From Candidatus Ornithospirochaeta avicola (GTDB lineage Bacteria; Spirochaetota; Spirochaetia; Sphaerochaetales; Sphaerochaetaceae): a stretch of 64,000 nt of DNA. Both the position numbers and the translations under genes were made by a program. The stretch spans positions 6,965 through 70,964 of the forward strand of contig DXHU01000013.1 in the NCBI GenBank assembly GCA_019113245.1, in the 5' to 3' direction. Numbering within the stretch: the first letter of the stretch is position 1; each line of letters begins with the position of its first letter. This document shows, piece after piece, positions 40,725 to 42,137 of the stretch. The notes under the pieces were generated by a model. That model was not told the origin of the DNA and searched no databases. It saw only the letters and a program-made list of their open reading frames with translations.

Positions 40725-42137
40725 ATGGCAGGAAACAAGAGCTTGGGCGATGCTAAAGCTGCAAAGAATGATGAGTTCTATACGCGATATGAAGACATCG
40801 AGGCGGAAATGAACGCCTATTACGAATACGACAACAACGTATTCAGGGGAAAGACTGTATTGCTTCCCTGTGATGACCCTGAATGGTCGGAATTCACACG
40901 ATATTTCGCCTCCAACTTCGATAGGTTCGGGCTGAAGAAGCTGATATCCACATCTTATGCGAAGAGTGCAGGATCAAGACAGCTCACTCTTTTCGAGGAG
41001 GAATCCCCACTGTTTGATGAGGATAAACATGATACTCATGGTAAACTTTTTGTCATCGAGAGAAAAGAGGGGGATACAAAGCCTATAGATACGGATAACA
41101 TCGAGTTCAGGGGATATCTTGACGGTGATGGTGATTTCCGTTCAAGAGAAGTGACAAAGCTTAGGGGTGAAGCCGATATCATTATAACGAATCCTCCGTT
41201 TTCACTACTACGAGAATTCTTCGCTTGGATAATGAGAGGAGAGAAGAGGTTCGTCATTCTGGGGAGTATGAATGCGATAACCTACAAAGAGATTTTTCCT
41301 TATCTCAAAGACAATCTGGTTTGGCTTGGGTACAAGTCATTGAACAGCGATATGTATTTCAATGTCACAGAGGAATATCAGCATTGGCTTGTCGAGAACA
41401 AAAAGGAAGGCTCGGCTTATAAGGTGATAAACGGTATCGTAATGGGACGATTGGCTTCCGCTTGCTGGTTTACCAACATCGATCATGGCAAACGTCACGA
41501 GCTCCTTTCCCTCGACACAATGGCTCACAATCTCAAGTTCAATAAGAAGTTGAGGAAGAAATTTCTCGATGAATATGGGAAGCTGGAATACCCTCACTAT
41601 GACAACTATGATGCCATCGAGGTGCCATTTGTTGAGGCAATTCCTTCCGATTACATCCCGACAGGGGACTTGACAAACGACGAGTTTGACATAGAATCCT
41701 TGACAGACAGACAGACAGACAGACAGACAGACAGACAGACAGACAGCTTGAAGTCTGCAATGGCATCATGGGAGTGCCGATCACCTTCCTCGACAAGTAC
41801 AATCCGGAACAGTTCGAAATTCTCGGAATCGCCAATTCTGCACGTTGGATCGGATGGAAATGCCTCACCGTCATCAATGGGCAGAGAATCTACAACAGAC
41901 TGCTTATCCGCAGAAAATCGCAGGTGTAACGGGCTTATGGGAGTACCGATTACCTTCCTCGACAGATATAATCCAGTACAATTCAAGATTATTGGTCTTG
42001 ATCGATATGTAGTAGATAATCCTAAACCTGGTCATCGTTTCACAATATCTGGGCGTGAAACATATGCCCGAATATTGATTCAAAAGAGGAGCAAAGAAAA
42101 TGAAAACAGAACTATATACGGAATGGACGGTAGGTGA
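40725..42137 (+). CDS. EcoRI-like N6-adenine DNA methyltransferase with internal (GACA)11 tract and duplicated C-terminal module
   Basis: 'NDEFYTRYEDIE' N-terminus and 'IIITNPPFSL' catalytic NPPF motif. In the observed frame, residues after the repeat read out of frame through module 1, then in frame through module 2 ('GLMGVPITFLDRYNPVQF'). Confidence 0.8.
   Translation: MAGNKSLGDAKAAKNDEFYTRYEDIEAEMNAYYEYDNNVFRGKTVLLPCDDPEWSEFTRYFASNFDRFGLKKLISTSYAKSAGSRQLTLFEEESPLFDEDKHDTHGKLFVIERKEGDTKPIDTDNIEFRGYLDGDGDFRSREVTKLRGEADIIITNPPFSLLREFFAWIMRGEKRFVILGSMNAITYKEIFPYLKDNLVWLGYKSLNSDMYFNVTEEYQHWLVENKKEGSAYKVINGIVMGRLASACWFTNIDHGKRHELLSLDTMAHNLKFNKKLRKKFLDEYGKLEYPHYDNYDAIEVPFVEAIPSDYIPTGDLTNDEFDIESLTDRQTDRQTDRQTDSLKSAMASWECRSPSSTSTIRNSSKFSESPILHVGSDGNASPSSMGRESTTDCLSAENRRCNGLMGVPITFLDRYNPVQFKIIGLDRYVVDNPKPGHRFTISGRETYARILIQKRSKENENRTIYGMDGR
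41702..41746 (+). repeat. Tetranucleotide simple-sequence repeat (GACA)11+G
   Basis: Counted directly: G at 41702, 41706 ... 41746. Translated as (TDRQ)3TD in the observed frame. Confidence 0.97.

Follow-up and report, generated by a model that had tools for sequence, protein, structure and literature searches.

Our analysis concerns a predicted DNA methyltransferase gene in a 64,000-nucleotide (nt) stretch of DNA from Candidatus Ornithospirochaeta avicola (contig DXHU01000013.1; the whole stretch is called the window below), in which a tract of (GACA)11 precedes two homologous C-terminal modules that lie in different reading frames. Two proteins encoded in the window match the NCBI records HIV98730.1 and HIV98714.1 with full identity. 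We judge it likely, from comparison of this gene with its relatives, that the locus is a three-state switch driven by repeat length, choosing between two recognition cassettes or none. Slipped-strand mispairing would alter the number of units, n, by one (4 nt), rotating the downstream frame and taking the gene through its states in the order B, A, C, B. In state A (n = 0 mod 3, as at 6, 9, 12 or 24 units), the catalytic part would be joined to module 1 and translation would stop at a TAA in the opening of module 2; in state B (n = 2 mod 3, as at 11, the observed number, 14 or 23), module 1 would be crossed out of frame for about 60 residues and module 2 entered in frame; in state C (n = 1 mod 3, as at 10, 13 or 16), GCT TGA would follow at once and leave a module-less enzyme, presumably off. 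The tract would occupy a linker that tolerates changes of length, and states A and B would both be active, methylating different motifs. The parts of the gene are:

40725-42137, plus strand: methyltransferase open reading frame (ORF), 470 amino acids (aa), as listed among the ORFs of the window
40725-41701, plus strand: catalytic part, PF13651 positions 2-276, then a hydrophilic linker of about 16 aa after a conserved IPSDY
41702-41745, plus strand: (GACA)11, the putative frame selector, with no stop in any frame and a hydrophilic (TDRQ)n-type peptide in every frame
41745-41924, plus strand: bridge (frame 0 across module 1), SLKSAMASWECRSPSSTSTIRNSS...ENRR, 60 codons without a stop, rich in Ser, Thr and Glu, predicted local distance difference test (pLDDT) < 50
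41746-41751, plus strand: GCT TGA stop in frame +1, terminating at n = 10, 13, 16 and so on, for a product without a module (state C)
41756-41929, plus strand, frame +2: module 1, PF13651 positions 277-303, E = 1.9e-11, in frame at 12, 9, 15 and so on units
41925-42137, plus strand, frame 0: module 2, PF13651 positions 277-343, E = 2e-9, in frame in the observed allele

The 470-aa product matches the EcoRI-family profile PF13651 of Pfam over the whole protein (E = 3.5e-104; 349 bits against a cut-off of 26.4), residues 7-310, the N-terminal part, aligning to profile positions 2-276, and it is matched by the PADLOC model MTase_II (E = 1.8e-78). The C-terminal part of the profile (277-345) is in frame in the observed allele by way of module 2, after about 75 extra residues; at 12 units it would be in frame by way of module 1. 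The sequence (N/D)PP(F/Y) is the catalytic motif IV of amino-methyltransferases; in the window protein it reads N156-P157-P158-F159, and this NPPF is invariant across 121 aligned homologues. The gene is a predicted N6-adenine DNA methyltransferase of the PF13651 EcoRI family. PF13651 is the sole Pfam family on the protein, no HsdS or HsdM domain was found on it or on its neighbours, and an NCBIfam search gave no named family for either the methyltransferase or the nuclease encoded beside it.

Tandem Repeats Finder reports the tract as (GACA)11.2 at 41702-41746 with 100% matches. It is a perfect simple repeat inside an ORF, its unit not a multiple of three, and the sole perfect short repeat within the 64-kb window; shuffled sequence is expected to hold 0 matches to (GACA)5, and a chance origin of the tract was rejected on these shuffles. 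An earlier reading, made from the sequence only, had laid out the outcomes for 10, 11 and 12 units, and these held when we re-derived the frame arithmetic on the sequence. With 11 units frame 0 is in register, and translation crosses module 1 out of frame, meeting no stop in 60 codons, before it enters module 2; with 12 units frame +2 is in register and gives (TDRQ)4-LEVCNG... in a 402-aa product that ends at 41929; with 10 units frame +1 is in register and runs into GCT TGA after about 340 aa. The TAA that closes module 1 (41927-41929) can be read directly, as that reading had also said, within the TGT-AAC codons (41925-41930) that open module 2.

Both modules match PF13651 from position 277, which bears out the proposal that they are homologous segments set in different frames behind the repeat. 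Module 1 is composed of a conserved head (CNGIMGVPITFLDKYNPEQFEILG), a short variable segment (IANSARWIGWKCLTVINGQR), a conserved tail (IYNRLLIRRKSQV) and then the TAA, and module 2 of a head (CNGLMGVPITFLDRYNPVQFKIIG), a variable segment (LDRYVVDNPKPGHRFTISGRE) and the tail TYARILIQKR, prolonged into a 38-nt overlap with the next gene. The heads share 72% nucleotide identity with a longest exact common run of 13 nt; over their first 26 codons 10 are identical, 9 differ synonymously and 7 carry replacements, in keeping with the earlier remark that they differ largely at synonymous positions. The same plan is general to the modules: a hypervariable insert sits between a conserved head (GVPITFLDKYNPEQFEI.G) and a last strand, Y.RI.I, that is conserved as well. 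In the N-terminal part the best 120 homologues share about 75% identity with the window protein; between QFEI.G and Y.RI.I they are wholly different. Mean pairwise identity among 92 single-module homologues is distributed as follows:

N-terminal part: 0.82
module head: 0.77
variable insert: 0.13
tail: 0.62

The two window modules had been said to diverge most between QF.I.G and the terminal motif, and the family-wide values for insert, head and tail place the divergence in that same segment. The variable types form discrete classes, and these reappear in different backgrounds and in different orders. The module-1 type of the window (IANSARWIG...INGxKIYNRxLI) stands alone in protein P0137 and in P0124, a call that looks chimeric, and comes last among the modules of P0123, P0125, P0126 and P0159; its module-2 type (LDRYVxDNPxxGHRFT) is found in P0004, as module 2, and in P0128, which holds both window types in reversed order, and P0009, P0010 and P0017 have a related LDRY type as their one module. 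Because the types are discrete and recurrent, and so divergent amid conserved flanks, the insert is most likely a target-recognition (specificity) element. AlphaFold2 models of the 470-aa product and of P0001, a state-A protein from a sister locus, are confident for the catalytic core, to about residue 290, and give the module as a strand, a short helix, a strand, a low-confidence variable loop and a final strand. This pattern fits a recognition insert held between conserved strands, in models too uncertain for more. Foldseek against the PDB returned generic class-I methyltransferase folds alone (E > 0.005), and a PDB sequence search gave no match and no relative with a solved structure.

The strongest argument for state B comes from the frame in which module 1 is crossed. 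We classed the modules from all fetched loci as internal, if another module begins at their stop, or otherwise as terminal. The +1 (bridge) frame is free of stops in 21/21 internal modules, which represent 6 distinct peptides of 4 variable types, and in 0/132 distinct terminal modules (Fisher exact P = 1.2e-10; with the count reduced to the four types, 7e-8); one of the internal ones is module 2 of a Selenomonadaceae locus, L060, described below. Single-module loci have a mean of 0.06 stops per codon in this frame, and a single variable type, ATESEG..., carries 1-5 stops there in 8/8 terminal copies and none in internal copies. This comparison shows the bridge frame to be kept stop-free by selection. 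An OFF state needs no open frame, and it is chiefly on the stop-free bridge that we base the view that the bridged product is made and has a role. In the 11-unit product, predicted at about 53 kDa in full length, the expected bridge peptides are SLKSAMASWECR and NSSKFSESPILHVGSDGNASPSSMGR; the bridge itself is probably disordered, as modeled.

The repeat is polymorphic among relatives. We found L001-L003 through proteins P0002, P0001 and P0020, and L164-L173 and L174-L183 through the 90% cluster of the nuclease, and we tallied states over the window and 11 related loci (L001-L003, L164-L168, L174-L176). The relatives have a common operon order of a helix-turn-helix (HTH) gene, the methyltransferase with (GACA)n, module 1, module 2 and a DUF262-HNH nuclease. 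All 11 share the repeat flanks, the GCT TGA in the third frame and the junction [AG]A[AG]GTG TAA NGG NNT NAT GGG, with 3 module-1 types, 5 module-2 types and five module combinations among them. Most of the module-2 types, or types similar to them, stand alone in single-module enzymes. The alleles and their predicted states are:

Window: 11 units, state B
L001: 5 units with a 74-nt flank deletion, state B
L002: 6 units, state A
L003: 6 units, state A
L164: 24 units, state A, module 1 in frame, 422 aa
L165: 16 units, state C, cut off at GCT TGA, gene 5'-truncated
L166: 23 units, state B, 520 aa, reading through to module 2
L167: 23 units, state B
L168: 14 units, state B
L174: 4 units with a 14-nt deletion adjoining the tract, state B, 491 aa
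L175: 4 units, state C, 332 aa
L176: 9 units, state A, 405 aa

State tracks n mod 3 exactly, save where a flanking deletion shifts the frame. All three of the states foreseen by the sequence-only reading thus occur in nature as predicted products (four A, six B and two C over the 12 loci, some of which are the same locus in different samples), and the survey of relatives that it had proposed found the two-module layout in all 11, with repeat number covarying with frame. Nor is repeat length fixed: complete tracts run from 4 to 24 units, and contigs that start inside the tract hold up to 26. L164-L173 are one locus in different samples, with an identical R protein and identical neighbours, and have complete tracts of 14, 16, 23, 23 and 24 units; L174-L183 are likewise one locus in different samples, with complete tracts of 4, 4 and 9 units; and L001 and L002, at 99% identity downstream of the tract, have different unit counts. 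Since state-A alleles span 6-24 units, or 8-32 repeat-encoded residues, the linker between the catalytic part and the module evidently tolerates 8-32 extra residues. An exact-pattern scan of a metagenome collection for the two repeat flanks gave no match.

Between these loci the flanks are 82-96% identical at the DNA level and the variable inserts do not align, from which we conclude that cassettes are exchanged by recombination. The 74-nt deletion of L001 (L001:3620-3652) and the 14-nt deletion of L174 (L174:2480-2515) lie directly upstream of the tract, the latter between short cttGACA repeats, and both bring module 2 into frame; microhomology deletions therefore appear to be a second, less reversible route between states. 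The tract is where five contigs (L169-L173) start and where the scaffold of L181 has a gap, and more widely many metagenome contigs (L169-L173, L177-L183, L112, L114, L120, L123, L181) start or end in the repeat or have a gap there. Such breaks are what heterogeneity of tract length in the sampled populations would produce, and because of them assemblies systematically hold these genes in fragments, which are annotated as small 'EcoRI_methylase' ORFs.

Just ahead of the tract, inside the ORF and ending 4 nt before the repeat, lies a near-consensus sigma-70-like promoter candidate, TTGACA-N16-TAGAAT (11/12; 41670-41697, plus strand). Its hexamers are kept in L002, L003, L164 and L166 despite a different spacer, and L175 and L176 have CAGAAT. 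Transcripts of the cassette region and the nuclease gene could start from this promoter, within the tract or just ahead of it; or the hexamers may only reflect conserved L-T...D-I-E-S coding.

A survey of the family, over 80 species-representative genomes and 80 metagenome loci of many phyla, found other repeat units in other lineages, namely (CAGC)n, (CAGA)n, (AG)n, G8 and a pentanucleotide; all units used encode a stop-free, hydrophilic peptide in every frame. The design is family-wide, a broader scope than the sequence-only reading had given it. In L060 (Selenomonadaceae; L060:1148-1638), behind (CAGC)8, three frames have three outcomes: module 1 is completed (..ITPYFRIIIRRKV*), module 2 is entered, or module 2 is crossed out of frame into module 3. 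This locus has the look of a full three-specificity version of the window switch. In L010 (Saccharibacteria; 4017-4300), L085:3538-3900 and L088:3784-4150, (GA)n lies inside the variable insert and three overlapping frames are open, each to its own Y.RI.I end, with tails of about 15, 45 and 90 residues; this is triple overlapping coding of alternative C-termini. The (GA)n or (AG)n tract of L092, where it is (GA)15, and of L084 completes module 1, joins module 1 through a conserved linker to module 2, or truncates the protein. Further tracts are (CAGA)5 in L007 (Christensenella), G8 in L024 and L053 (Bacteroidales) and, at the protein level, pentanucleotide-type repeats in P0004 and P0043.

All three frames are occupied among proteins with near-identical N-terminal parts: P0013, P0019 and P0085 are identical in this part, as are P0012 and P0105 to each other, the two groups being 98.9% identical, and P0057, P0068 and P0083 are 97-99% identical. 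In nine database proteins a module head is translated out of frame (..SWEC.S.SST..) and an in-frame module follows 56-72 residues later. P0121 and P0122 have four modules. Two to four complete modules are joined in frame in P0006, P0012, P0018 and P0122 and in L024:3440-3540 and L053:4075-4175, by a conserved linker of about 30 residues (..GYTDEEITVESG.. or ..GHSEEEM..LLSMGV..); such members might employ more than one recognition insert at a time, in the manner of multispecific enzymes. A second (GACA)n lineage (L112-L115, L120), 57% identical, has 10-13 units inside a KFRKG-type module, followed by unrelated membrane-protein-like DNA that differs among contigs, some of which end in the tract; these may be chimeric assemblies or a disrupted gene, and the lineage was left out of the tally as not interpretable.

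The genes on either side of the methyltransferase are:

40266-40724, plus strand: HTH (Xre/Cro type) protein, 152 aa, Pfam HTH_26 and HTH_3, with a weak PADLOC 'control protein' match
42100-43266, plus strand: nuclease with GmrSD_N (DUF262) and HNH domains (Pfam), 388 aa, matched by PADLOC REase_II over its full length (E = 1e-78)

The stop codon of the HTH gene abuts the methyltransferase ATG, at the same position in L001-L003, L164 and L166, and its product may be a controller protein. The start of the nuclease overlaps the end of module 2, and a nuclease follows the methyltransferase in 75/83 related loci (L001-L083), the PADLOC MTase_II and REase_II matches thus falling on separate adjacent genes, as in a classical Type II restriction-modification (R-M) pair. 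Nuclease identity tracks that of the methyltransferase N-terminal part, and the nuclease is without a variable cassette. In a classical Type II pair the nuclease recognizes the shared motif on its own, and it should then co-vary with the recognition domain of the methyltransferase. Between the window and L001/L002 it is 90.7% identical over its full length without gaps, at loci whose methyltransferase variable segments are unrelated; because of this it probably has no matching specificity of its own, and it may take or tolerate the specificity set by the methyltransferase. The unit at about 38106-43266 comprises an IS4-family transposase (38361-39821, minus strand), a pair of HTH genes, the methyltransferase and the nuclease, and contigs L001 and L003 have it too, at 82-90% nucleotide identity. 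L001 has downstream a MurJ/MatE gene in place of the 1125-aa glycoside-hydrolase-like gene of the window, and the R-M unit therefore looks mobile.

Several points weigh against a switch between two working specificities. The activity of state B and the difference in specificity between the modules are steps that we infer; AlphaFold2 models the linker, the bridge and both modules (pLDDT about 35-60 for the modules) with low confidence, and neither docking of a module nor its contact with DNA is visible in the models. The unit counts come from short-read metagenome assemblies, which may misjudge long tracts and hide heterogeneity, the state-B frame of L001 and L174 is partly due to deletions beside the tract and not to repeat slippage, and the state-C allele L165, a 5'-truncated gene, counts for little. 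One alternative is a plain ON/OFF switch, in which state A alone is active, module 2 is a leftover 3' end after cassette replacement and the 11-unit allele is OFF. Cassette replacement by recombination is indeed clear, given non-homologous variable parts amid flanks that are 82-96% identical; P0003, the relative nearest in the N-terminal part (98% identical), carries just one module and lacks the repeat; and AlphaFold2 places module 2 in the 470-aa product without confidence. A relic, however, would gather stops and frameshifts, and module 2, which had itself been raised as a possible relic by the sequence-only reading, is intact in 12/12 loci, in five types. An OFF state would also leave unaccounted for a bridge frame that is open in 6/6 distinct internal modules and 0/132 terminal ones, the statistic on which the relic reading was rejected; state B is moreover the commonest in the assemblies (6/12), and L060 employs all three frames for three modules. 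We regard plain ON/OFF switching as unlikely.

Selection on the bridge could instead reflect the passage of ribosomes, the frame being kept open for travel to the nuclease start (coupling or anti-polarity) and the repeat tuning the ratio of nuclease to methyltransferase. Without exception the last module reaches the start of the DUF262-HNH gene or runs past it (by 38 nt in the window, 11 nt in L001/L174 and 1 nt in L164/L166), and state-A translation ends 170 nt before that start. For such coupling, however, an open frame would suffice, and a complete module with conserved head and tail, of a type used elsewhere as sole module, would be unneeded; the nuclease also has its own strong Shine-Dalgarno-like AAGAGGAG before its ATG at 42100. 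We hold this explanation to be improbable. It is more doubtful still that both tails are made from one genotype, by frameshift suppression or transcriptional slippage on the repeat, or by stopping at the TAA and re-initiating at the ATG of ..MGVP.., 8 nt downstream, to release a free module-2 peptide acting in trans. A purine-rich GGTG/GAG box does lie 8-10 nt before that ATG in every junction, and a 2026 preprint describes frame-dependent leaky expression through the (AG)n of a Mycoplasma bovis mod gene. The box is also explained by the Arg/Lys-Val codons of the module tail, though, and re-initiation would leave the stop-free bridge frame unexplained, so that this reading accounts for less. 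(GACA)n is not known as a ribosomal slippery site. Mis-assembly of the window repeat, and hence of its frame, has a very small chance of being the answer: related contigs often start inside the tract and one scaffold is gapped there, but the window tract of 44 nt is well within a read, and the two-module layout is independent of the exact count and recurs in 11 other contigs. We therefore keep the three-state switch as our preferred interpretation.

For phase-variable methyltransferases, a 2026 review lists no routes besides ON/OFF switching and hsdS recombination. The closest analogue of the window locus is the repeat-containing Type I hsdS, as in NgoAV of Neisseria gonorrhoeae and in the 'extended' hsdS, with three target-recognition domains (TRDs), of Mannheimia haemolytica and of Fusobacterium nucleatum; depending on tract length, HsdS is there full, truncated or extended and differs in specificity (PMC7383803). 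In both, a repeat in specificity-coding sequence shifts the frame toward alternative specificity proteins, beyond ON/OFF, and the 'extended' hsdS form, in which read-through adds a recognition domain, resembles the arrangement of L024, L053 and P0006. In hsdS, however, the repeat acts on a separate HsdS subunit, which it shortens or lengthens, and the upstream domain is common to the alternatives, whereas here a single-polypeptide PF13651 enzyme would swap one whole cassette for another lying in a different frame, reading through the unused cassette out of frame, with up to three frames in use. The locus would act in the manner of a repeat-switched hsdS without being a Type I system. As in the Type III mod phasevarions (modA, modH, modM), a hypermutable repeat, there typically a tetranucleotide, lies in a methyltransferase ORF and is length polymorphic, and genome-wide switching of methylation would by analogy be the expected consequence. 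The mod repeats are 5' and give ON/OFF, with a variable recognition region that differs between strains and not within one gene; here, in contrast, the repeat precedes the C-terminal recognition module, and two alternatives are encoded besides OFF.

Several cassettes per locus with conserved flanks are also found where switching is by recombination, as in the inverting hsdS of Streptococcus pneumoniae and Mycoplasma pulmonis and the TRD movement of Helicobacter pylori (PMC7383803). Exchange of cassettes between strains, shown here by the mosaic structure, is common to the Helicobacter pylori and hsdS recombination systems and to the present one, but the choice among cassettes would here need no recombinase or inverted repeats, being made by translational frame through slippage. 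The C5-cytosine methyltransferases of the Bacillus phages SPR, phi3T and H2 (PF00145) carry tandem recognition domains and are multispecific. Their recognition modules in a row may be relevant to P0006, P0018 and P0122, with two to four modules in frame; the phage enzymes, however, belong to a different family and are made with all their domains at once, a repeat and a choice of frame being absent. As the sequence-only reading had supposed, an open-access literature search found no account of repeat-selected C-terminal cassettes in PF13651 or in any Type II-like methyltransferase; nor did it return a description of phase variation in the PF13651/EcoRI family or a characterization of the DUF262-HNH partner.

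On a wider view, to which we give about an even chance, PF13651 methyltransferases with a specificity-less DUF262-HNH partner would make up an R-M-like system widely distributed among gut and rumen bacteria of several phyla, with the repeat as a frame gearbox: one repeat would pick one of up to three cassettes, serial or nested, and several repeats would give more combinations. If the switch operates as we propose, single cells would change stochastically among methylation, and perhaps restriction, specificities and an off state, without a recombinase; this would be a multi-state phasevarion in a Type II-like enzyme, encoded by a natural sequence selected for reading in two or three frames and thus a clean test case for selection on alternative reading frames. 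Such a mechanism would account for odd annotated gene lengths and the small 'EcoRI_methylase' ORFs behind them, and may explain the assembly breaks at the repeat. If the nuclease follows the specificity of the methyltransferase, it also raises the question of how cells survive a switch of restriction specificity. By extending repeat-driven switching beyond the ON/OFF of Type III and some Type II systems and the hsdS recombination or truncation of Type I, the locus would offer recombinase-free storage and choice of several DNA specificities in one gene, in commensal gut and rumen lineages rather than classical pathogens, and it predicts hidden epigenetic heterogeneity in microbiomes.

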